Positions 4,820 to 20,000 of a stretch of DNA of 20,000 bases are shown here, in pieces. The stretch is from assembly GCA_029717555.1 (NCBI GenBank), contig JAMDHS010000040.1, positions 172,400 through 192,399 on the forward strand, written 5' to 3'. Position numbers and translations under genes: made by a program. A model generated the notes under the pieces. That model saw only the letters and a list, made by a program, of their open reading frames with translations. It did no database searches and was not told the origin of the DNA. This DNA is from Peribolospora baueri. Lineage: Eukaryota. Each line of letters starts with the position of its first letter. The stretch's first letter is position 1.

Positions 4820-6410
4820 AATATCAACACGACACGCTCTGCTCTAGCCTTGCGGGCCTCTTCATTTCGTCTCTTTCCTTTTTTCCCTTACTATGCCTTG
4901 CTTTCATTTTCCTTTCCGTCCTGCCTTGCCTCGCTTGGGCGCATTTGGCGTTGTCTCGCGCCGCCGGCCGGCCGCCCACCCGCCGTTATTTATTACCTTG
5001 CCCATTTTACCCTACCCACCGGCCTTTTTCGCTCGGCCCATTCGTCAACGTACGCGCGTGCCGGCCTGTATCTTATCATAGAAAAACGGATAAAAGAAAA
5101 CCGATGTCGGATCCGATCGACCCAAGGGAAGGGACGGACGTGGCTGGTTGGCCACTTGGGACGACGGACGGATGGAGGATGGGATGGGGGTGAACCTGGG
5201 AAAACAAACGCTGGCCGGCGTTTTTCGAGGTCGGTCGGTTCCATGTGAATATGGATTGGGTTCGTCTTTGTCGTTTGTCCGATGCGTCGGCAGCATCATC
5301 ATCATCATCGTTGTCGTCACTGGACGCCCCAGCAGCGCCCGCCCAGCGCCATCGCATCGTAGCACCATCGATCAAAAACGAAAACGTGTGCGATCGAATT
5401 CGGAGTGTCGTCATCCCATCCATCCAACCATCTTATCATCCATCCATCCTCCGTCCTTCCTTTCTTTCGCTGTCCATTTTCACGCGACGCTTTTGCAACG
5501 CCGCAGTTTTTTATTATTTTTATTTTTATTTTGCGCTGTCGGCGGCAGGCGGCCTTCGGCTCCGACCGAGGCCGATCGGACGCTTGAGGGAGCGAGCGAG
5601 TGAGCGAGGACGGTGGGGACGGATGTGACGTAAACGGCGACGAGGGAAGAGGGCGACGGGCTCGCAGTTGGTCCGCCGGCCAGCCGCAGTGCCCCAAGCC
5701 ATCCATGTCATCCATGTCATCCACCCATCATCCATCCACCCAGCATCGAAATGAAGAACGCCACACGATGGGTGTCACCATCGCTCGCGGCCGTGATCGT
5801 GATATGATCGGTCGGAGGACGTCGGTCGAGCTTGGGCCGGAACGACGGGTCGTGTGAGTGGCCGCAGCAGTTGCCGCAGCAGGGCGTGGCGAGCGAGAGC
5901 GACTTGTTGGGGAAGTGACACCAGCGGCTTTGTTTTTGCTGCGTCGATACAACGACGTCCCGGTCGGGGCGATGAGACAGACGACGACGAGCGGCGGTCG
6001 GCGGGGCAGCGGATGGGGACGAATGCTGGGGCGTGCGTGGAAGAGACAGAAAGACAACCAGCTCGAGACATGATAAACGGAGGAGGGGCGAAAGCGAGAA
6101 CGAGAGTCGTCGTCGTCACTCACCGACCCATTTCTTCGTCTTCCTCCACCACCAACCACCGCTTCTTCTCGCCTTAGCCCGGCCTCACGTTCATCCCAGC
6201 CTTCTTCTTTCCACCACCCTCGTTTCGGCGCCCCCGGTCCGCCTCCCCACGTTCTCGCCGCACTTACTTATATCAACCCCAGCCCCTCCCCGCCGTCTTC
6301 CTTTCCTCCATCTCCGTTCGCCACTCACCTTCTCATTCCTCCTCCCTTCTTCTCTTCCCTTCTTCTCCCTCTCGAACGATCTTCCTTCCACATCTCCCCG
6401 TCGCCCGGCC

Positions 6411-8210
6411 ATGAGCCTCGACGCCGACGCCACCTTGCGCGGGCGTCTCCCGCACGCCTCTCTCGACGACTCGGACTCGGCCTCGCCCGTCGTCGTCGAG
6501 GCCAAGGGCCACCCGCTGGGCGCCGCCAAGGTCTCCGCCACCGCCACCGCCACCGCGCGCCCCTCCAAGCCCGCCCGCTTCGCCCAGGCCGAGCCCGTGG
6601 ACGCGGACATTGAGGACGACTACGTGACCCGCACGCTCGCCTCTCAGAAGGCGCTCCCGCCCGTGACGTGGAGCAACTTCCTGTCCGAGGTTAACTGGCT
6701 CTCCACCATCATCCTCACCGTCACCCCGCTCCTCTCCATCTACGGCCTCTTCACCACCAAGCTCCAGGCCAAGACGTTCTGGTTCGCCATCTTTTGGTAC
6801 TACGTCACCGGTCTCGGCATCACCGCCGGCTACCACCGTCTTTGGGCCCACCGTTCCTACACCGCCTCCAAGCCTCTCCAGTACGCCCTCGCTCTCGCCG
6901 GCGCTGGTGCCGTTCAGGGCTCCATCAGATGGTGGTCCCGCGGCCACCGCGCCCATCACCGCTACACCGACACCGACCTCGACCCCTACAGCGCCCACAG
7001 GGGTCTCGTCTGGTCCCACATCGGCTGGATGGTCATCAAGCCCCGCCGCAAGCCCGGCGTGGCCGACGTGTCGGACCTGACGAACAACGCCGTCGTCCGG
7101 TGGCAGCACGAGAACTACCTCGCCCTCCTCCTCCTCATGGGTCTCGCCGTGCCCACCCTCATCCCCGGCCTTTTCTGGGGTGACTGGACCGGCGGCTTCT
7201 TCTTCGCCGGCGCCGCCCGCCTCTGCTTCGTCCACCACTCTACTTTTTGCGTCAACTCGCTCGCCCACTGGCTCGGCGAGGCCAGCTTCGACAACAAGAT
7301 CTCCCCGCGCGACCACGTCATCACCGCGCTCGTGACCATTGGCGAGGGCTACCACAACTTCCACCACCAGTTCCCAATGGACTACCGCAACGCCATCAAG
7401 TGGTTCCAGTACGACCCCACCAAGTGGTTCATCGCCACCATGAAATACCTCGGCCTTGCCTCCCACCTCAAGGTCTTCCCCGACAACGAGGTGAAGAAGG
7501 GACAGCTGACGATGCAGCTCAAGAGGCTCCACGAGATGAAGCAGACCATCGAGTGGCCCAAGAGCTCGAACCACCTGCCCGTCGTCTCCTGGGACGACTT
7601 CCAGGAGGAGTCCAAGACCCGCCCCCTCATCGTCGTCCATGGCTTTGTGCACGACGTGAGCTCCTTCCTCGACGAGCACCCCGGCGGCCGCCACCTGCTC
7701 ATGAACAAGATCGGCAAAGACGCCACGACAGCCTTCCTCGGCGGCGTGTACGACCACTCCAACGCGGCCCACAACCTGCTCGCCATGATGCGCGTCGGCG
7801 TCCTCGACGGCGGCTACGAGCTCGAGGCCAACAAGCCCCAGTACCGCGCCGCCGCCGCCGCTGCGCACGCCGGCCGCTCCGGGTCGGCCTCGGACGCGAC
7901 GAACCCGGGCGTGACGACGTCTTCGGACGAGAGCGACGACTTTACCTCGTCCGGCCCTCCGACTCCTCTCTCTTCTCGGTCCGAGGAGAACCTCGTCCTC
8001 CCCGCCGCCGTGTCCGCCAAGGCGCCCACCTCGTCGTCCTCCGACTCTGCCTCGGCCTCGGAAGATGTGGTCATCCTCACCGACGGACGACGGATCGCGC
8101 CGTCGGCGGCCAAGTACCTACCCCCGAGCCAGATCCTTGACATTGTTTCCCGCGGCGAGTTGACGGAGAACGCGAGGGCAAGGAGGGGCAAGCTTGGCAA
8201 GTTGCTCTGA
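6411..8210 (+). CDS. OLE1: Acyl-CoA delta-9 fatty acid desaturase with C-terminal cytochrome b5 domain, 599 aa, intronless
   Basis: Three His boxes (HRLWAH, HRAHH, HNFHH), GITAGYH, TM segments, and b5 heme motifs HPGG and GGVYDHS. Strong C-ending codon bias starts at GCC ATG 6411. The upstream extension in the ORF track is pyrimidine-rich UTR/promoter. Confidence 0.97.
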   Translation: MSLDADATLRGRLPHASLDDSDSASPVVVEAKGHPLGAAKVSATATATARPSKPARFAQAEPVDADIEDDYVTRTLASQKALPPVTWSNFLSEVNWLSTIILTVTPLLSIYGLFTTKLQAKTFWFAIFWYYVTGLGITAGYHRLWAHRSYTASKPLQYALALAGAGAVQGSIRWWSRGHRAHHRYTDTDLDPYSAHRGLVWSHIGWMVIKPRRKPGVADVSDLTNNAVVRWQHENYLALLLLMGLAVPTLIPGLFWGDWTGGFFFAGAARLCFVHHSTFCVNSLAHWLGEASFDNKISPRDHVITALVTIGEGYHNFHHQFPMDYRNAIKWFQYDPTKWFIATMKYLGLASHLKVFPDNEVKKGQLTMQLKRLHEMKQTIEWPKSSNHLPVVSWDDFQEESKTRPLIVVHGFVHDVSSFLDEHPGGRHLLMNKIGKDATTAFLGGVYDHSNAAHNLLAMMRVGVLDGGYELEANKPQYRAAAAAAHAGRSGSASDATNPGVTTSSDESDDFTSSGPPTPLSSRSEENLVLPAAVSAKAPTSSSSDSASASEDVVILTDGRRIAPSAAKYLPPSQILDIVSRGELTENARARRGKLGKLL

Positions 8211-9689: not shown

Positions 9690-9823
9690 GTCTTTCTCGC
9701 TGCCCCGCTCCGCTCCCACGGCCGCGCTTGCGTTAGCCCGAGATCGTCGTTGCAGCAACGCATCCCCGCCCGTCGACCACCGTTCGTCTCGTCTCTCTGC
9801 TCGCTCGTGCGACGCCGTCGTGT

Positions 9824-9899
9824 GGACGGACGGACGGATAGACAGGCAGACGGATAGACAGACGAACGAACGAACGAACGAACGAACGAACAACGAACA
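9824..9899. repeat. Compound tetranucleotide microsatellite (GGAC/GACA/GAAC)
   Basis: ggacggacggacggatagacaggcagacggatagacagacgaacgaacgaac... Confidence 0.85.
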
Positions 9900-10204
9900 A
9901 ACGGCCAAACGGACGAACGGCGGGCGCGGACGGACGAGAGGACCGGCTCATCTCCTTCGTCCACCTTCTCCCCCACGCCTTCGCTTCCGCCCTCCTTCCT
10001 CGGTTTCACCTTTGCCAGCAACCCGTTTCGCTTTCGGTCAACCCGCCCGACCACTTTACCCGCCGCCCCGCCGTCTATACGCATCCCACCACTCCGCCCC
10101 GAGCCCTTGCTTGCCATCGACGCCGAACAAAACCGGGTGCTCCCTGCCCCGGTCGTTCCCCCTCTTCCTCGACGACAACGCCACCACCACATCTGCAAGT
10201 CGCC

Positions 10205-12253
10205 ATGGCCCCCTCCACGGCCGCCTCCTCGCCGCCCCTCCAGCCCGCGCCAGGGCAGAAGCAAGCGTCCAAGCCCAAGTCCACGATGGCTGACGCTCCA
10301 CTTCCTCAAAGAAAACCGCTTTCTTCTCGACCCAACTCGGTCATCGGCCTCCTTCGCCTCCCCCTCCCCAAGCGCATTCGTTCCTTCTCCTCTTCCTCCT
10401 CCGTTCGCTCCGCCAGCCTTCGCGACTCGCCCTTCTCCCCCGCTCTCTCCGGGCCCCTCAGCGCACCGATCCTCGACAAGGAGGAGGACCCCATGCTTCG
10501 TCCCACCCCGCCGCCGCCGCCGCCCATCGCCCCATCACCAGACCAACGGCGGGCAACCGACGGCGCCAGAACGGCCGTCTCCTTTGTCGTGACCTCCAAG
10601 CGGTCTTCCTACCTCGGACCCGCCGCCCGCGCTCCTCCGGCTTGCGCTGATGGTAGCAAGGCCTCAGCGACCCCGCCCGTCGACATGGCCGCCGCCAAGT
10701 CCACGTTCGCCGACACGCTCTCCACTTCGCCCGACTCCTGCTCCCCCGTCCTCAGCGATCCCACCTGTGAGAGCCAGACGACCATCACCAAAACGCTCGT
10801 CGGTCAGCGCCACCGCGACCGCGGCCGAGACTCGGCTCTCTCCTCCTCCGCCGCCTCCTCCTCTTCCGCCTTTTCCCTCCCCCTCACCGACCGCTCCACT
10901 TCGCTCACCCGTTCCCGTTCCAACTCGCGTTCTTTGTCCGGCGCCGGAAGCACGATGAAAGGAACGCAGGAGAGCGACTGGACCGGCTCTTGGTCCAGCT
11001 TGGAGGAGGCCGCTGCGACGGCTACGGTGGCCATCGGCGCGGCGACGTCGCCGCTCAAGGGGCACGATGACGACGGCCCAGGTCACCTCGCCGGTGTCGT
11101 CCCGGCGAACGCCGCGGGGAAGGCGGCTTGGCGGCATGCGCCTTCTCCCTCGTCTGCGTCCACCTTATCCGCCGCCACCGTCGCAACGACAACAACAACA
11201 ACAACAACGACGACGATGACGATGCCGCCGCCGCTCCTCTCCGCCGCTTTCCTTACTCCCACGCCCTCCGCCGAACCGTCGCCTTCCCCTTTCTTTACCC
11301 CTCTACCCTCCGCCACGCCCTTGCTCGCTCCCTTTCCCCTATCCCAGCCTATCGATCCACATAACGATGGCGAGGCCGGTGGCGGTCACGCTCACCCGCC
11401 CGTCCTCGTCGATGGACGACAAGGGCGGTGTGCGCAAGAGCGAGAGGCGGCCGGCGACGATGACGTCGGCACGTCTCTTCCAGCTTCTCTTACCACCACC
11501 CACTCCGCATCCCACCCTTCCTTTCCCTCCTCCTCGTCTACCTCCCATTCCTCTTCCGACCGCGCCCCCACCCTCCTCCGCACCGTCTCCCTCGACGCTG
11601 TCCTCCTTCCTCTCCCTCCAACAAGCAAGAACGAGATATTGGATCTTGCCGACCCACCGCCGCCGCCGCCGAATACGTCCTCTCCGTCGTCGTCGGCCGT
11701 GGCCGTGCCTCGCTTGGAGGAGGCTGACGGGAAGGGAAAGATGGAGATTGATGGTCGGATGAATGGGTCGGCGGCGAGGCCGGTTCTTGGCGTTGGAGTT
11801 GAAGAGACGATGGCGGCGGCGGCGGCGAAGCGGGTTCTGGGCGTCGGAGCTGAAGCGACGTCGACGACGACGACGACGACGGAGAAGGAAGCGGCCGCCG
11901 ACTCGGGCCCGCGAGACGACGCGCTCGGGCTCCTCGGTTCTCCTCTCCAACACCCTTTCGTCCTCGCCCCTTCCCGTCCCCCCGTCTCTCCTCCTCACCA
12001 CCTCTCCGCCGCTCGAACCTTGTCCTCCCTGACCCTCGCGTCCACCTCGCCAGACCACCCCGTCGCATCTCCGCCGGAACCTGCCGCCCACGACGCCGCC
12101 CTCTGCGACGCATCGTGCCTCTGTCTCGGTTGTTTGCGCACCAGCGTAGCTCCGCTCGAGGCTTTGGAGAGGTGGAGCGTAAAGGTCGTCGTCGACGCTG
12201 AGAGGGAGCGCCAGGTGGAGGTGGTCGCGGTCGCGGTGGCGGCGGACATCTGA
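10205..12253 (+). CDS. Hypothetical S/P/T/A-rich, probably disordered protein (682 aa) with a C-terminal Cys cluster
   Basis: 2049-nt open frame with good start context (GCCATGG), in-frame trinucleotide runs (poly-T, poly-P, poly-A) and a pyrimidine-rich 3' flank. No recognisable domain. Confidence 0.6.
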   Translation: MAPSTAASSPPLQPAPGQKQASKPKSTMADAPLPQRKPLSSRPNSVIGLLRLPLPKRIRSFSSSSSVRSASLRDSPFSPALSGPLSAPILDKEEDPMLRPTPPPPPPIAPSPDQRRATDGARTAVSFVVTSKRSSYLGPAARAPPACADGSKASATPPVDMAAAKSTFADTLSTSPDSCSPVLSDPTCESQTTITKTLVGQRHRDRGRDSALSSSAASSSSAFSLPLTDRSTSLTRSRSNSRSLSGAGSTMKGTQESDWTGSWSSLEEAAATATVAIGAATSPLKGHDDDGPGHLAGVVPANAAGKAAWRHAPSPSSASTLSAATVATTTTTTTTTTMTMPPPLLSAAFLTPTPSAEPSPSPFFTPLPSATPLLAPFPLSQPIDPHNDGEAGGGHAHPPVLVDGRQGRCAQEREAAGDDDVGTSLPASLTTTHSASHPSFPSSSSTSHSSSDRAPTLLRTVSLDAVLLPLPPTSKNEILDLADPPPPPPNTSSPSSSAVAVPRLEEADGKGKMEIDGRMNGSAARPVLGVGVEETMAAAAAKRVLGVGAEATSTTTTTTEKEAAADSGPRDDALGLLGSPLQHPFVLAPSRPPVSPPHHLSAARTLSSLTLASTSPDHPVASPPEPAAHDAALCDASCLCLGCLRTSVAPLEALERWSVKVVVDAERERQVEVVAVAVAADI

Positions 12254-13482: not shown

Positions 13483-16112
13483 TCAACCCGTACCCGCCGA
13501 CTCGGCACCGGCCTCCTCCACCCTCTGTTTCTCCTTCTTCGCCGCCGCCGCTGTTATCCGCTCGATCTCCGCTCTCTCCTCTTCCGCGCTCATTGCCGCA
13601 GGCCGAGGTCGGCTCTGCTGCTGCGCCGGTTTGGCATGCGCAGGCCGAGGCCGAGGCGGACGGTTATGCTGCTGCTGTTGCTGTTGTAGAGACGGGCGCT
13701 GCGGGACCGAGTGCCAAGGTTGGTAGGGCCGATACTGGTGTTCGTGTTCCCGTCCGGCCAAAGGTCGCGACTTGCCTGACCTTGACGACGAGCTCCGGTC
13801 GGTCGCTGGCGGCGGCCGAACATAGGACCGGGCGCCGAGGTCTGTACCGGTGAGGGAAGCACCGACGTCAGAGACGTCTGGAGGCGCCGGGTTGATCTTG
13901 TTAGGGATGTCGAGCAGCGCGCACAACGCTTCCGTCTGTGGGTTCGTGTACCATGGCGCTGGTGACCGTCGTGTGGGAAAGAAGAGAACGTGGCAACAAA
14001 GCACGTTGAGCAGCGGATCAGGTGGGACGGGAACAGATGGAAGCCAGGTAGGAGTCACTCACGCATCCTCGTTTCCCTTCCGCCCGGGTCGACCGGAGAT
14101 GGCGCCGTCCTGTGAAACGTCTGCGTCCTCAGAACGTCGAGCGGGTGAGAGTGCGCGGTCGTCAAGCCTTCCCTCTCATCTCCACCGCTTTCGCCGCCAC
14201 TTTGCTCCTTCGACAAACGCTCTTTGATCCATCCCATCTCCTTCTCCACCATTTTGCGCAACTCTGCAGAGTCCGGTTGAGGGAAAGGAACGGTTGGGCG
14301 GTGCGAGAGGGGCAGGTAGGGGTGAAGTGCGCGCGTGATGGCGAGCCATCGAGGCGAAAAGCGAAAAATGGGAGGAGAGCTAGATTCGGGTGCGGGTATG
14401 TCGACGATCTGTGGGCATGGAACAAGGAGTGAAACGCGCCTTTCAGCGGCCGCCGGAGTACGTAGGTGAACGAGGGAGGACCAAAAAGCACGAGTGCCGT
14501 TGCCCACCTCTAGGAAGCCACCTTTGGGGGTGCACTTGCTTAATGCCAGAAAACTTGTCGTCCTAGCAGAAGCCAAAGGGGCTTCTGCCGCCGGCTCGGC
14601 AGATGGACCCAAATCCACTTCTGTGGCAGCCGTCTCCTCCGTCATACGGCTTGTGTCATCCGCCGCCGCGGTCTCGTCATCCTCGTCCACATCAATGTCG
14701 ATCGCATCGGGATTCGTAGACGGGGCCATGTCGACCATCACGTCGTCGTCATCAATGACAATCTCTTCCGGGTTTGCAGACTGCGGCGCCTCCTCAGCTT
14801 GCGCAAACGGAATTCCTGACACTGATCCCCAATCGCCTGCCATCTTCGAAGAGCTATCGTGCCGATATAAGGCGGGGAATCTGACGTGCAGGTGCGCAGC
14901 GAACCAGTGCGAAGGCTTCAAGGTCTGGAGGAGGTCCAGAAGCGGAGGGGAGCCAAGGGTGCCTGTGTTGACCTGTTACGTACAGGGAATGAGCGGAAAG
15001 AAACATGAGATACTGCAGAGACAACTGAATGGCTCAATGGGAGCACACCTCCTCCGTAAAGAACCGCTTCTTGCTCAGAAGAGCTCGCAGGTCGCCGTGC
15101 TGCTCGATCGTGTTGGGCCAGTCGTGAGAGAGGAAGATGTCCGGGTTCTCGTCGAGCTAAGCATCGAAAAGGAAATATGGGAGATTGAACGGGTGTACCC
15201 TGTGAAAAGGAAAAGAAGCGTCTCCGGCTTACCATCATCAGCTTGAGAATATCATACCTTCGGACATGGTAGATGCTCCGCATGTCGCCAGCAGAATACG
15301 GCATCCTCTCGAAATGACCTGTCGTGGGCGGCGGGAAAACCAGGTCAGACAACCCAATCCCCCAACCTATCCGTGAGCTCTCTTTGGTTAAAATGGCGAA
15401 GGCGGATGAGTCATTCACCGAGATTGTAATCGTGGGATTTGTAGATGCCTGACGCCCCGGCAATGGTCAGGCCATTCACTTCGACCGCACCCGCAAAACC
15501 GAGAAAATAGATGTTCGGTGCTAGCCAACCTCCGTGATACCTGAACAGAAAGGGATAGATGCGAAGCCTGATAAATGTTTGGTAAATCAAGCGCGAAAAG
15601 CTCGCATCCAGTGCAGGGACAGAAACACGTCGGCTCGACTACTCACAGCTCCCACATGTAATTACTCGCCTCATGATTGCCTCCGATGACGATCGTGAGC
15701 ATGGGAGCCACCCTCTCTCCGGAGTAGTACTTGTGAAAGCCGCCCAATCGACGATATTTTTGAGGCACGGCCAAGCAGTTCAGATCGGCTGCATTTCGGA
15801 TCGCCTGGAAGGGAGGACGAAAAATCCAAAGGTCAAAGATCAAGAGATCCCCCGCTTCGCTTTGGATGTGGTCATCTTGAGGACGTGCAATGATGCGCAC
15901 CTGAAAGTCTCCGCATATGAGCAGCAAGTCCACCTTGTACCCTCCCTTCTCCTCTGCCTGTCGGACGGAGTCGTAGATGGTGTCGAGCTCGCCGTGGCAG
16001 CACCCTTCGACTGCGATCTGTTCGGACGGCGTTCGACGAAGGTAGCACGAACGCACAATTTGAGCACAGAAGGTCTCAAACGTACGTATCTCTGGACGGC
16101 TCACACCTTCAT
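13483..16112 (-). CDS. DBR1: RNA lariat debranching enzyme, ~627 aa; exons 16112-16107, 16017-15901, 15804-15647, 15540-15419, 15318-15233, 15156-15049, 14972-14508, 14408-14063, 13958-13483
   Basis: Spliced product contains [76 protein letters not shown] and the C-terminal [13 protein letters not shown]. All introns are GT..AG and the frame sums to 1884 nt. Confidence 0.95.
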
Positions 16113-16415
16113 CGTAACTCTGTTTTGGGACGAGGCGAGAAGAGAAGGCGTTCATTGGCAAGGGCTCCGGTTTGGAGAAAGAGAAGACACATCGCCTCGT
16201 CTGCACGTGATCGACTTGATATCGACTACGATCGGCGGCCGGCGTCGTCGTCTTCGTCTTCTCGTGCGACATGGAGACGCTCGCAAAACACACAGTCCCC
16301 CTCTTTTGTCCTCCCCCTTCACAGCCACGCCATGTTTACTACTGTCAACCCGTCTCCGACCTTATATACGGCACGCGCGCTCTCCAAGCGCCCAGCAGCT
16401 GCTTCGCCCCCCTCG
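16113..16415. promoter_or_regulatory. Probable compact bidirectional promoter shared by DBR1 and MED4
   Basis: Divergent start codons lie ~300 bp apart (~220 bp if MED4 uses ATG 16332). Positional inference only. Confidence 0.55.
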
Positions 16416-17532
16416 ATGCGAGACGAGCTGCTGACGACTCTCACCGCCTACCAGTCGCTGACGCAGTCCCTCTTCGCTTCCCTCGAATCCGCCGCTTCCA
16501 CATCCCGAGGAGTCCCTCCACGTCCACCTCCCTCCATCCTTGCCGAGATATCCTCACTGGACGAGAAGCTGGCGGCCCTCCTGGAGAAGGCGAGACGTCA
16601 CGCGAGCAACCAGCGTAGGATCACCGCACTCTTGCGAGAGATCGACGAGGCCGATGAGAAGGCTTTGGAGGCGATGACGGTGTTGGAGAAGGCGGGGCGC
16701 GAGTTGGATGGCATCGTAGCCTACGGAAGAGAGGAGATTGATATGATGAAAAAGGCTGAGAAAGGTGAGGCGCGCTCGTCTTCTTTTTTGTCCACACAAA
16801 GGACGAGATGAGTCTTCTGGCAGAGCATCCTCCGCTTTTCGCCGTCGTCTTTGTCTGCACACACAGTCCTTGACCGGCTTGTTCATCGCACCTTATCGTA
16901 TCTTTTACCTCATTCCCCCCTTCGCTCATCTCGTCCACGACCAACCAAATCGAAGCGGCCATCACGCCCGCCACACTGCTCTCTTATGCCGCTCGCCTCG
17001 GCAAGTTCACCTCCGCACCACCAGGCTACATCCTCCCGTCCCGCCTGGCTGCACAGACCAGACGCGCACAAGTCGAGGCCGAGGCGCAGACCGAAGCCGG
17101 CGCCGCGTCTCAGCCTCAACGCACCTTGGGGGAGCCGGGGCAGGACCAGCCCCACGCCCCCATGGCCACTATACCGCCGTGGCCGACAGAGGATATGATG
17201 AGGAGGGGAGCATTGAGCGCCGGTGTGGTCAATATGATGGAGATGGTCGTGGGTCAGTGGTCTCCTGTCCCTTCTTTGTCTCTCTTCTGGACCTTACTCG
17301 TCTATTCGAACCGGCCTGACCCTCGTTTCGTGCATTCTTCATTCTTCGCCTACCACATCTACCTCGCCCAGAACCGCCTGCGGAACAAGCACAACAACCC
17401 GCGCAACCGCCGCCGGCGCAAGCGTTCCCCATCACAACGGCCCACGCCGCCCCGGCTTTCGAAGAGGCGTGGCCGCCTGCTGGAGACGACGAGGATATGT
17501 TCGGGCTAGATTTGAACCCGGACAACGACTGA
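16416..17532 (+). CDS. MED4: Mediator of RNA Pol II transcription subunit 4, ~268 aa; exons 16416-16764, 16956-17252, 17372-17532 (in-frame upstream ATG at 16332 possible)
   Basis: Coiled-coil-like N-terminal half, then Med4 motifs LLSYAARLGKFTSAPP and PPWPTEDMMRRGAL, ending in the fungal-type DDEDMFGLDLNPDND*. Spliced frame is 807 nt. Confidence 0.88.
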
Positions 17533-17809: not shown

Positions 17810-18787
17810 TCACACCCATCGCTTGCCGTAAGACCAAATGCCGGCAGCACTGCCGACCAGTAGCGATGACACGATCATGGGTCGAACGCCGGCTGGAATG
17901 CGAGTAGTAAGGAAAGAGGTGAGATACTTGGCTGGTCACAAGCGCATGACGATGTAGAACCATGTGCGAACACGAAACGAGACTCACAAGTGCATCTGAA
18001 CAAAGCGCCGCTCACGGTGCCAGCGGTGATGCTGTTCAACGCATCGTGCTTGCCTCGCGCGGCGTCCATGGACGAGTTGATGACGTTGTAGAACAGTGCT
18101 GACAAGAAGAAACCACGCGGAGAGGAAGCACACTTCTATCAGCGGGCAAGCGACTCAATGGTCGGGAAGATGAGAAAGAGGCGGTGGCAAACCGGTAACT
18201 CACCGAGTAAGCCCGCAGAGTTGCCGATAAACGTTCCTCGGCGCGTGACGCTGTTGAGGATGCTGTTGATGCGCAGACGGGCATTGGATACGCCGAGCTG
18301 TCTTCGCCATCCTTCGCGAAGGCCCATCAAGCCACCGATAGAGAGGCCTGGTGTGGAAAATGAGGAAAGTGAGTGCGATGGAAGGTGATGCGAGATAGCA
18401 CATGAAATAATCCAGGACAGAACGTGACGTACCCGACAAGTACGTCGTTCCGGTGCCATAGCACAGATCATCTCCCCATCCCCTGCTCGGCAGCGCCGTC
18501 CGGGCACCCTCGAGCTCATTCGGCTGGTCCTCGTCCAGAAGCAAGTAATCCACGTTCCCGAGCCCTGCTAGAGGGTGCAGACGGGTAGGGTCCAATGCGG
18601 CAGCACCAAGGACGTCCGAGGCAGTGACAGCATCGGTAGGGGTAGCGTAGGAGCCGGGAGAAGAGCCCGGAGTGCTGAACTGTGCGTTACGGAGGAACGA
18701 AGCCGAGTCGACGTCTTGCTGCGAGGACACCGGGTGGCTTTGGCTACCTGGTTGTGAGGAAGAAGAGCTGGGGTCGGAGAACGACAT
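17810..18787 (-). CDS. TIM23: Mitochondrial inner membrane translocase subunit Tim23, 230 aa; exons 18787-18433, 18347-18204, 18098-17988, 17892-17810
   Basis: Motifs LHPLAGL, LPSRGWGDDLCYGTGTTYLSGL, RLRINSILNSVTRRGTFIGNSAG, RGKHDALNSITAG and GALFRCTSGVRP. GT..AG introns give a 693-nt frame. Confidence 0.96.
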
Positions 18788-19223
18788 GACGACAGAGTAT
18801 GAAGGTAACGGAAGCGTGTATATGGAGAAAGAAGGGGTGGGTGAGGGAAACGAGGGTGGCGAGAAGGCGATCGCCGTGCCTTTTTTCAGATGGTGATGGC
18901 GATGAAGAGGCGACCTTCGACCGAAGCCGGGAAGGAACGCAGGGAAAATCCGATAGGTGCACGTGACACTTGCTGCGGTGAGTCAGTCAGTCAGTCAGCC
19001 AGCCTGCCTCTTATTAGCCTTCCTCCTCCCACCCACCTCGGACGATTGCGTACGACTGCTTGAAAGGCTTTCTTCATGCATTAACCACTTCCTCAGCCGT
19101 CCTGATCTGCTGACGATGTCACTCCGGGGGATGGTCCCCGCCCCGGACCAGTTTCGTCTCAACGCGGCGTCTCAGCTTTGCCTTTTGTTGGATTTAACTA
19201 TTCTCTTCAACTACCTGGGAACA

Positions 19224-19229
19224 TATAAA
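19224..19229 (+). promoter_or_regulatory. TATA box of the secreted repeat protein gene
   Basis: TATAAA(G) ~90 nt upstream of ATG 19315, followed by a CT-rich leader. Confidence 0.6.
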
Positions 19230-19314
19230 GGACTCAGGAGCGCTGCTTCGTCCTTTCTTGACTGCACGCTCACTCATTCCCACCATCCTTCTCCCCTTTC
19301 CCCCCTTCCTCATC

Positions 19315-20000
19315 ATGAAGTCCTCCCCTCTTCTCTCCTTCGTGGCCCTGGCCTTGACCATCGCCGCTTCCCAGCCCTCAGTGGCTGCTCCTGCAGTAGC
19401 GCCGTTGACCAGGGTTAACCCGTCTTCCGCTGGGGTTGCTAGCCACGTCCATGTGGACAACGCGTCTTCGACCGACCCCTCTGGGAACAACACCCCTTCC
19501 GCCGACACCTCTTCGGCCGGCACCCCTGCGACCGATACCTCTTCGACCGATACCTCTTCGTCCGATAGCCCTTTGGCCAACACGCTTGGGACCGACACTG
19601 TGACCGCGGATTGGTACGGCAAGAAGAAAATAAACAAGGCCAAGAACAAAAACTTCAACCATGTTGATATCGATCAAAAACAGAAGACTGACGTTGACGT
19701 CGACGTTGACAACAAGAAGCAGTACAACAAGCGCGACGGCGAGAAAAAGATCAACAAAGCAACTAACGTCAACCACAACAAGGTCGACCTCGACAACGAA
19801 CAGAAGACTGACGTCGACGTCGACGTTGACAACAAGAATAAGCCCACCAAGCGCGACGGCGAGAAAAAGATCAAGATCAACAAAGCAACTAACGTCAACC
19901 ACAACAAGGTCGACCTCGACAACGAACAGAAGACTGACGTCGACGTCGACGTTGACAACAAGAATAAGCCCACCAAGCGCGACGGCGAGAAAAAGATCAA
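19315..20000 (+). CDS. Secreted Kex2-processed repeat protein (KEP-like precursor), 3'-truncated by the window edge; absent from the ORF track
   Basis: Open frame from ATG 19315 to the edge. It has a signal-peptide-like start MKSSPLLSFVALALTIAASQPSVAAP, a S/T/D-rich spacer, then 40-42-aa repeats each ending in KR, e.g. DGEKKINKATNVNHNKVDLDNEQKTDVDVDVDNKNKPTKR. Confidence 0.88.
   Translation, partial: MKSSPLLSFVALALTIAASQPSVAAPAVAPLTRVNPSSAGVASHVHVDNASSTDPSGNNTPSADTSSAGTPATDTSSTDTSSSDSPLANTLGTDTVTADWYGKKKINKAKNKNFNHVDIDQKQKTDVDVDVDNKKQYNKRDGEKKINKATNVNHNKVDLDNEQKTDVDVDVDNKNKPTKRDGEKKIKINKATNVNHNKVDLDNEQKTDVDVDVDNKNKPTKRDGEKKI
19471..19575 (+). repeat. Degenerate 15-bp coding tandem repeat (xDTSS-like pentapeptide)
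   Basis: accgatacctcttcg occurs twice exactly, plus diverged copies in the same 15-bp register. Confidence 0.75.
19615..20000 (+). repeat. 120/126-bp coding tandem repeat; units 19615-19734 (diverged), 19735-19854, 19855-19980, 19981->edge
   Basis: Units 2 and 3 are identical except for a 6-nt AAGATC duplication. Confidence 0.95.

Follow-up and report, generated by a model that had tools for sequence, protein, structure and literature searches.

Kex2-processed repeat proteins (KEPs) are a main route by which fungi produce secreted peptides, and only a handful of them have a known function (mating pheromones, repellents, candidalysin, and ustiloxin-type toxins among them). The layout of their genes is common and well catalogued in fungi, and near the smut fungi, repeat proteins cut by Kex2 shape the hyphal surface and infection. 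Rep1 of Ustilago maydis (652 aa), as described in the accessible parts of two accounts, consists of a signal peptide and 12 repeats of 34–55 aa; cleavage by Kex2 yields 10 peptides of 34–53 aa plus one larger piece, which assemble in the wall as amyloid-like fibrils and render the hyphae hydrophobic (PMC3133707, PMC4617103). The available portion of the latter account also describes two further secreted proteins: Hum3, in which 17 repeats of 31–36 aa with putative Kex2 motifs between them are joined to a hydrophobin domain, and Rsp1, whose 11 repeats (18 or 21 aa) are hydrophilic and likewise have putative Kex2 motifs between them (PMC4617103). Kex2-type sites are present in 8 of the 15 U. maydis repeat effectors covered by the accessible part of PMC5923269. 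Here we analyzed a 20,000-nt stretch (the window) of contig JAMDHS010000040.1 (Peribolospora baueri, assembly GCA_029717555.1; positions 172,400–192,399 of the forward strand), at the 3′ end of which an open reading frame (ORF) runs into tandem units that each close with Lys-Arg (KR). This ORF is probably the 5′ part of a gene for a KEP of a basidiomycete near Ustilaginomycotina, whose units would be cut apart and released as a linear peptide.

From its ATG at 19315–19317, the ORF stays open for 228 codons until the window ends, and its 3′ end lies outside. Its features are as follows.

19224–19229, + strand: TATAAA box, 91 nt 5′ of the ATG, followed by a pyrimidine-rich leader.
19315–19386, + strand: signal-peptide-like segment MKSSPLLSFVALALTIAASQPSVA, codons 1–24, likely cut after A24, or S19.
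19387–19608, + strand: pro-region, codons 25–98, rich in Ser, Thr, Pro, Asp, and Ala.
19609–19734, + strand: unit 1 DWYGKKKINKAKNKNFNHVDIDQKQKTDVDVDVDNKKQYNKR, a diverged copy with KR (19729–19734) at its end, placed by translation and alignment to units 2 and 3.
19735–19854, + strand: unit 2 DGEKKINKATNVNHNKVDLDNEQKTDVDVDVDNKNKPT plus KR (19849–19854), 40 aa.
19855–19980, + strand: unit 3, 42 aa, with KR at 19975–19980.
19981–20000, + strand: start of unit 4 (DGEKKI...); the window ends after its sixth codon and the array goes on outside.

An earlier reading made from the letters alone (the sequence-only reading) had noted an upstream TATA box, a signal-peptide-like N-terminus, and a spacer rich in Ser, Thr, and Asp, and all three held up. 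The TATAAA hexamer has no listed difference in a related organism (organism B, described below), where the nearest listed one is at 19223. The ORF begins with MKSSPLLSFVALALTIAASQPSVAAP, in which a basic n-region with K2 precedes a hydrophobic core from L6 to A18 (maximum Kyte-Doolittle 9-mer mean of 2.78 in a scan of residues 1–48), and small residues occupy positions −3 and −1 of the putative cleavage site (S-V-A/A). The signal peptide call is a hand reading of the sequence, not a SignalP result. In the pro-region, residues 25–98 include 15 S, 13 T, 7 P, and 8 D (75 counted) and two N-x-S/T sequons (N49 and N58); this region is likely a glycosylated spacer. Its DNA is itself periodic, with a period of 15 and 6.7 copies in Tandem Repeats Finder (TRF) and 15-nt and 30-nt tandem periodicity at 19465–19595. 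S, T, D, K, and N are abundant in residues 25–228, where inspection of the sequence showed no long hydrophobic run.

TRF analysis of 19679–20000 gave a period of 126 with 2.6 copies, 94% matches, and a score of 560. The tandem units are 120–126 nt long, begin at residue 99, and each closes with AAG CGC (KR). In pairwise alignment, the DNA of units 2 and 3 was identical except for a 6-nt AAGATC (IK) in unit 3, which reads as a slippage insertion. The sequence-only reading had counted at least three complete repeats with KR at 19729, 19849, and 19975. The KR codons are indeed at these positions, but only units 2 and 3 have KR on both sides; on the N-terminal side of unit 1 there is GKKK only, and no KR.

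The KR sites look functional because Arg occurs in the repeats only within KR, unit 1 keeps its KR, the KR codons at 19849–19854 have no listed change in organism B, and a paralogue also has KR. Arg makes up only 4 of the 228 residues, the three in the repeat part all being in KR at unit boundaries, and in the alignment the KR of the diverged unit 1 coincides with that of units 2–3 despite the differing triplet before it (QYN vs. KPT).

In the accessible part of PMC6339444, a KEP is defined operationally as a protein that has a signal peptide but is otherwise free of membrane segments, breaks into four or more fragments when cut in silico at KR/RR, contains three or more repeated motifs separated by these sites, and consists of repeats over at least 15% of its length; the KEP motifs surveyed there are 3 to 352 aa long. 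Since these motifs span such a range, the 40-aa unit is unremarkable. Cutting at the KR of residues 139–140, 179–180, and 221–222 gives four fragments and three aligned units, and the repeat units amount to ca. 124 of the 228 residues of the part within the window, about half. As far as can be judged, the part within the window appears to fit this operational definition, and the KEP layout proposed in the sequence-only reading is borne out to the extent that the accessible part of PMC6339444 defines it.

We regard the sense frame as coding because its GC content at third codon positions (GC3), its codon choice, the signal peptide, and the frame-keeping indels in organism B all point the same way. 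GC3 of the sense frame was 0.71 in the N-terminal non-repetitive part and 0.77 in the repeats, compared with 0.50 and 0.37 in the other two phases; the values for local genes were 0.91 (desaturase), 0.63 (DBR1 exon), and 0.73 (Med4). An antisense frame (19378–19998, −) and an out-of-phase frame (19661–19999, +) are also open across the repeats. This openness is no evidence of coding but a by-product of a stop-free unit, and stop-free frames over repeats are easily taken for genes by ORF callers. Taken together, the sequence argues for the 5′ part of a real gene, with weak constraint on the precise sequence of the peptide.

All or part of the stretch is present in four public runs of one study; no RNA run was listed among them, which counts neither for nor against transcription. 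Two of the runs (X1 and X2) represent organism A, in which a flanking contig of 9862 nt shows no difference from the window as far as 19725; the other two represent organism B. Over 19100–19719, the organism B orthologue differs from the window by 35 letters and 54 gap letters. Its coding indels are net 24 nt (in the pro-region), 0 nt, and 6 nt (the IK insertion), and the frame is kept. Among the 33 listed substitutions (27 of the 35 differences of the contig piece are shown in the list), 5 are upstream of the ATG and 28 are in the coding part, the latter comprising 19 non-synonymous and 9 synonymous ones. Codons 1–25 contain none of the 33. The KR codons at 19849–19854 have no listed change, and the next codons are changed (D to N and E to D). 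The promoter and signal peptide are conserved and the pro-region and units change fast, a pattern that secreted repeat proteins usually show. Between 19719 and 19733, organism B has 154 unmatched letters compared with 13 in the window, which are perhaps an extra diverged unit.

The short-read contigs break within the repeat array, and the number of units was estimated from depth. In run X1, the unitigs on 19762–19825 had depths of 1107.4 and 65.9 against 82.7 for the single-copy flank (ca. 14-fold), in run X2 a 114-nt repeat unitig had a depth of 1135.1 against 108.9 for the flank (ca. 10-fold), and the repeat unitigs of organism B reached ca. 2-fold depth (186.9 vs. 94.1 and 149.3 vs. 73.2), contig depth being a rough guide only and not equal to copy number. 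These depths give a rough hint of ca. 10–14 near-identical units in all in organism A and fewer in organism B, and hint that the number of units differs greatly between these close relatives. Unitigs fitting a unit-1-type end (19697–19754, 2 mismatches) were at ca. 3.5-fold single-copy depth, and Tyr-bearing unit ends resembling ...KKQYNKR may recur further along the array.

A paralogue is carried on a 1053-nt single-copy contig found in both X1 and X2. This contig agrees with the window in 65 of 81 nt over the DNA of the signal peptide (19308–19388) and in 36 of 42 nt over the DVDVDV part that precedes the unit end (19801–19842). Its spacer is shorter (202 nt vs. 412), and it continues in frame as F-K-K-I-K-R-T-E-R-D, so that KR is present there too. 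By these matches, the gene is a member of a small family, with at least one paralogue of the same build in the genome.

For secretion, cleavage, trimming, and copy number, we infer the following course. The pre-sequence of ca. 24 residues would direct entry into the endoplasmic reticulum, and the Ser/Thr-rich pro-region with its two N-glycosylation sequons would serve as a glycosylated spacer resembling that of the alpha-factor precursor. A kexin would cut after every Lys-Arg in the late Golgi, and a Kex1-type carboxypeptidase would then remove the K and R. This would release, in many copies, a linear and probably unmodified peptide 38–40 residues long (three units in the window, perhaps 10–14 in all), and the released peptide would be DGEKK(IK)INKATNVNHNKVDLDNEQKTDVDVDVDNKNKPT.

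Unit 2 contains 7 K against 9 D/E, and the net charge of the peptide is −2 or −1. The peptide is strongly hydrophilic (mean Eisenberg hydrophobicity of −0.42), and its helical amphipathicity is not above that of shuffles. A strand-like alternating stretch, KTDVDVDVD, has a beta (180-degree) moment of 0.92, which was matched by 3–6% of shuffles. A canonical Ca2+-binding loop was considered for DVDVDVDNK and dropped, this stretch being without the Gly of DxDxDG-type loops, which need it. C, F, W, and Y are all absent from units 2–3, and unit 1 carries W100, Y101, F114, and Y137. The statement of the sequence-only reading that units 2–3 lack Cys and aromatic residues is correct; a lack of aromatic residues may not extend to the whole array, where depth suggests Tyr-bearing ends like that of unit 1.

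KK follows DGE in every unit and aligns with the KKK ahead of unit 1, the sole basic site there. From this alignment, a second cut after KK is a possibility and would yield a 33–35-mer beginning I(K I)NK.... However, Kex2 strongly prefers Arg at P1. According to the accessible part of PMC6339444, KK is used less than KR/RR as a cutting site.

We searched for relatives of the protein at the level of sequence and structure. Pfam at E ≤ 10 gave two chance-level matches only, neither of them to MF_alpha. A word-indexed search among proteins of 400–2000 aa returned 5603 candidates, none of which scored, and an exhaustive phmmer search of 1.84 billion representative proteins gave no match at E ≤ 0.001. 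In metagenome contigs, a protein-pattern scan matched 591 stretches, none of which was confirmed, and a degenerate DNA pattern for KTDVDVDVDNK had no match. The PDB gave a single chance match (E 0.34), and the ESM Atlas gave no usable match. By these searches the protein is a sequence-level orphan, in agreement with the earlier remark that the peptide resembles no known one. The weight that the same reading gave to this novelty was too high: because 2560 of the 7878 KEPs catalogued in a survey of 1461 genomes stand alone without homologues, an orphan KEP is to be expected and is not rare (PMC7329392). Basidiomycete KEPs average 5.3 per strain in this survey (PMC7329392).

Several observations weigh against a precursor that is cut into peptides. 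The three KR sites within the window amount to about two independent observations, units 2 and 3 having arisen by recent copying of the DNA. By cuts at KR alone, the first product would be the entire pro-region together with unit 1. The changes listed for organism B, 19 non-synonymous against 9 synonymous, point to little constraint on the peptide. Amphipathicity is only local, and the likeness to repellents is weak. The AlphaFold2 model computed without an alignment was uninformative (mean predicted local distance difference test score [pLDDT] of 44, no secondary structure); the precursor is probably disordered. The figure of 10–14 units is a reading of contig depth, with the looseness stated above. 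Finally, the C-terminal end lies beyond the window, where a glycosylphosphatidylinositol (GPI) signal, a C-terminal domain like that of Hum3, or a near stop may follow.

The alternative that survives best, to which we give a minor but real chance, is that a secreted or wall-bound repeat protein stays whole and acts as a hydrophilic, charged, disordered spacer or coat, in which KR is incidental or shielded; such a protein would be likened to mucins, adhesins, or the non-processed Rsp3 of U. maydis. K is the commonest residue (31 of 228), and Arg after Lys is expected at ca. 1 in 5 per independent unit, which would make an incidental KR less surprising; even so, Arg is confined to the boundary KR, and this KR is retained in unit 1, diverged as it is, as well as in organism B and the paralogue. 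S/T-rich regions like this one typify O-glycosylated wall proteins, and a GPI signal would lie in the C-terminus, beyond the window. The number of units seems to vary (about 10–14 vs. ca. 2 identical units), as in wall proteins and, according to the accessible part of PMC5923269, in Rsp3. The disorder of the predicted model would suit an intact coat protein, but an exposed KR in a disordered protein of the secretory pathway would also be a good kexin substrate, as is generally held and as the KR/RR sites in the accessible part of PMC6339444 indicate.

In a second alternative, which is very unlikely, the ORF would encode the precursor of a RiPP, a peptide made on the ribosome and modified after translation, of the ustiloxin/dikaritin or another type, whose KR-bounded cores are modified by nearby tailoring enzymes. 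A signal peptide and KR-separated repeats are the features used for mining ustiloxin-type precursors (PMC7329392), unit 1 has Tyr, the ca. 3.5-fold depth of unit-1-type unitigs suggests that Tyr units may recur downstream, and the downstream flank is beyond the window. However, DUF3328, tyrosinase, or other tailoring enzymes were matched by none of the 116 six-frame ORFs of at least 90 aa in a Pfam scan covering the 19.3 kb upstream, which agrees with the earlier argument against a dikaritin-type product. Units 2–3 contain no Tyr, Cys, Trp, or Phe, and the units, at 40 aa, greatly exceed the 4-residue cores of ustiloxins and phomopsin in length. DUF3328 genes lie near just 6.1% of basidiomycete KEPs (PMC7329392). 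In this six-frame scan, 8 of the 116 stop-to-stop ORFs in the window gave Pfam matches, one of which was a weak low-complexity match, and the neighbors are housekeeping genes, as listed here.

5976–8207, + strand: delta-9 fatty-acid desaturase with a cytochrome b5 domain (Pfam; 599 aa from the ATG at 6411).
13486–16335, − strand: lariat debranching enzyme, DBR1 (Pfam; at least three pieces).
15921–16808 and 16874–17506, + strand: Med4 (Pfam; profile positions 3–86 in one frame and 75–141 in the other).
18142–18982, − strand: Tim17/Tim22/Tim23-family protein (domain ORF 18142–18567; Pfam E 1.6e-06, under the curated cut-off).

That there is no gene product at all, but a minisatellite beside a chance ORF or a dead gene, is highly improbable: the repeats are stop-free in several frames, sense as well as antisense, the homologue searches were blank, and the share of non-synonymous changes among those listed is high, but gene-like GC3 and codon choice are found in the sense frame only, a well-formed signal peptide opens the ORF behind a TATA box, the frame survives indels of 24 and 6 nt in organism B with no listed change in the signal peptide, and a paralogue of the same build is present.

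Among the neighbors, the split of the Med4 profile over two frames indicates an intron, and the Tim17-family gene, also read in two frames, likely contains one as well. The Tim17-family gene is transcribed away from the repeat gene, with which it shares ca. 530 bp of intergenic DNA if its ATG is the one at 18787. Microsatellites with a 4-nt period were observed at 18982–18999 and at about 9700–9950; (GTCA)n lies in the promoter region shared with the Tim17-family gene, and the microsatellite in the 5′ leader region before the ORF at 9842 reads TDRQTDRQTNERTNERTN in one frame. The latter ORF (9842–12250, +) is an open frame of 803 codons that is rich in Ser, Pro, Ala, and Thr and has no Pfam match; other frames are also open in this GC-rich part. 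It is probably a gene for a disordered protein.

The best matches of the desaturase were from Violaceomyces palustris, Pseudozyma flocculosa, Sporisorium scitamineum, Acaromyces, Microstroma, and Tilletia, followed by other basidiomycetes. The identity to these matches was 59–63% at 89–94% cover (for Acaromyces, the match is by HMMER score only). From these matches, the genome most likely belongs to a basidiomycete in the neighborhood of the sequenced Ustilaginomycotina, though not to a close relative of theirs. The runs contain ca. 23 million letters of contigs, in keeping with the small genomes of that group. An ascomycete affinity, which had been considered from the CT-rich leader, was rejected, since the desaturase matches point to Ustilaginomycotina.

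As to function, our guess by analogy is that the peptide acts at or near the cell surface, as a coat of the wall or matrix like the products of U. maydis Rep1, Hum3, and Rsp1, and that it is neither a mating pheromone nor a cross-linked RiPP. A bolder and improbable idea is that the units give rise to surface peptides of a new class, made by a basal lineage resembling Ustilaginomycotina that has no Rep1 homologue: zwitterionic 38–40-mers would assemble into sheets on the wall through the alternating Val/Asp strand TDVDVDVD (with VDLD before it) when Ca2+ or low pH neutralizes the Asp face. If this were true, the peptide would have evolved independently as a switchable equivalent of repellents, hydrophobins, and chaplins, and a small gene family with fast-changing unit numbers would tune the coat.

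Because the desaturase places the genome near Ustilaginomycotina, Rep1, Hum3, and Rsp1 of U. maydis are the relevant comparison. Of the systems with which the sequence-only reading had compared the locus, Rep1 stays, and the ascomycete pheromones and dikaritins fit less well given this lineage. The founding KEP, MFalpha1 of Saccharomyces cerevisiae, shares with the ORF a pre-pro structure, a glycosylatable pro-region, and KR repeats for Kex2 and Kex1, as described in the accessible part of PMC6339444. Unlike alpha-factor, the ORF has no MF_alpha Pfam match, D-G-E-K follows KR in place of the X-Ala/X-Pro dipeptides for Ste13, and the peptide of 38–40 aa exceeds the 9–24 aa of alpha pheromones. 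Basidiomycetes do not use KEPs as mating pheromones, according to the same accessible part (PMC6339444).

The precursors of ustiloxin (UstA), phomopsin, and asperipin are similar in having a signal peptide and KR-separated repeats (PMC7329392). Units 2–3, in contrast, contain no Y-x-I-x core and the units are tenfold longer, and, unlike ustiloxin-type loci, the 19.3 kb upstream holds no DUF3328 gene. Ece1 of Candida albicans is secreted and cut at KR into several peptides, which are not repeats of near-identical sequence, and its product candidalysin forms a hydrophobic helix; the units here differ from it in being near-identical, hydrophilic, and without helical amphipathicity.

Like Rep1, the ORF appears to have about a dozen KR-bounded units, here of 40–42 aa and perhaps 10–14 in number. 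Unlike Rep1, it gave no sequence match in the phmmer search at E ≤ 0.001 among the 1.84 billion representatives, in which the presence of Rep1 is unconfirmed, although the smut proteomes matched by the desaturase belong to a related collection. The repellents are amphipathic and amyloid-forming, whereas the peptide here is hydrophilic and only locally strand-like, Rep1 being compared by its description. Hum3 is similar in unit length; it ends in a hydrophobin domain, and the C-terminus of the ORF lies beyond the window. Rsp1 is similar in hydrophilicity, but its units are half as long. Sequence similarity to Hum3 or Rsp1 was likewise not found by phmmer among these representatives. By architecture and lineage, and not by sequence, Rep1, Hum3, and Rsp1 appear to be the nearest analogues, and what this locus adds to them is an unusually hydrophilic, charge-balanced 38–40-mer, without a relative in the libraries searched, from an under-sampled branch near the smuts.

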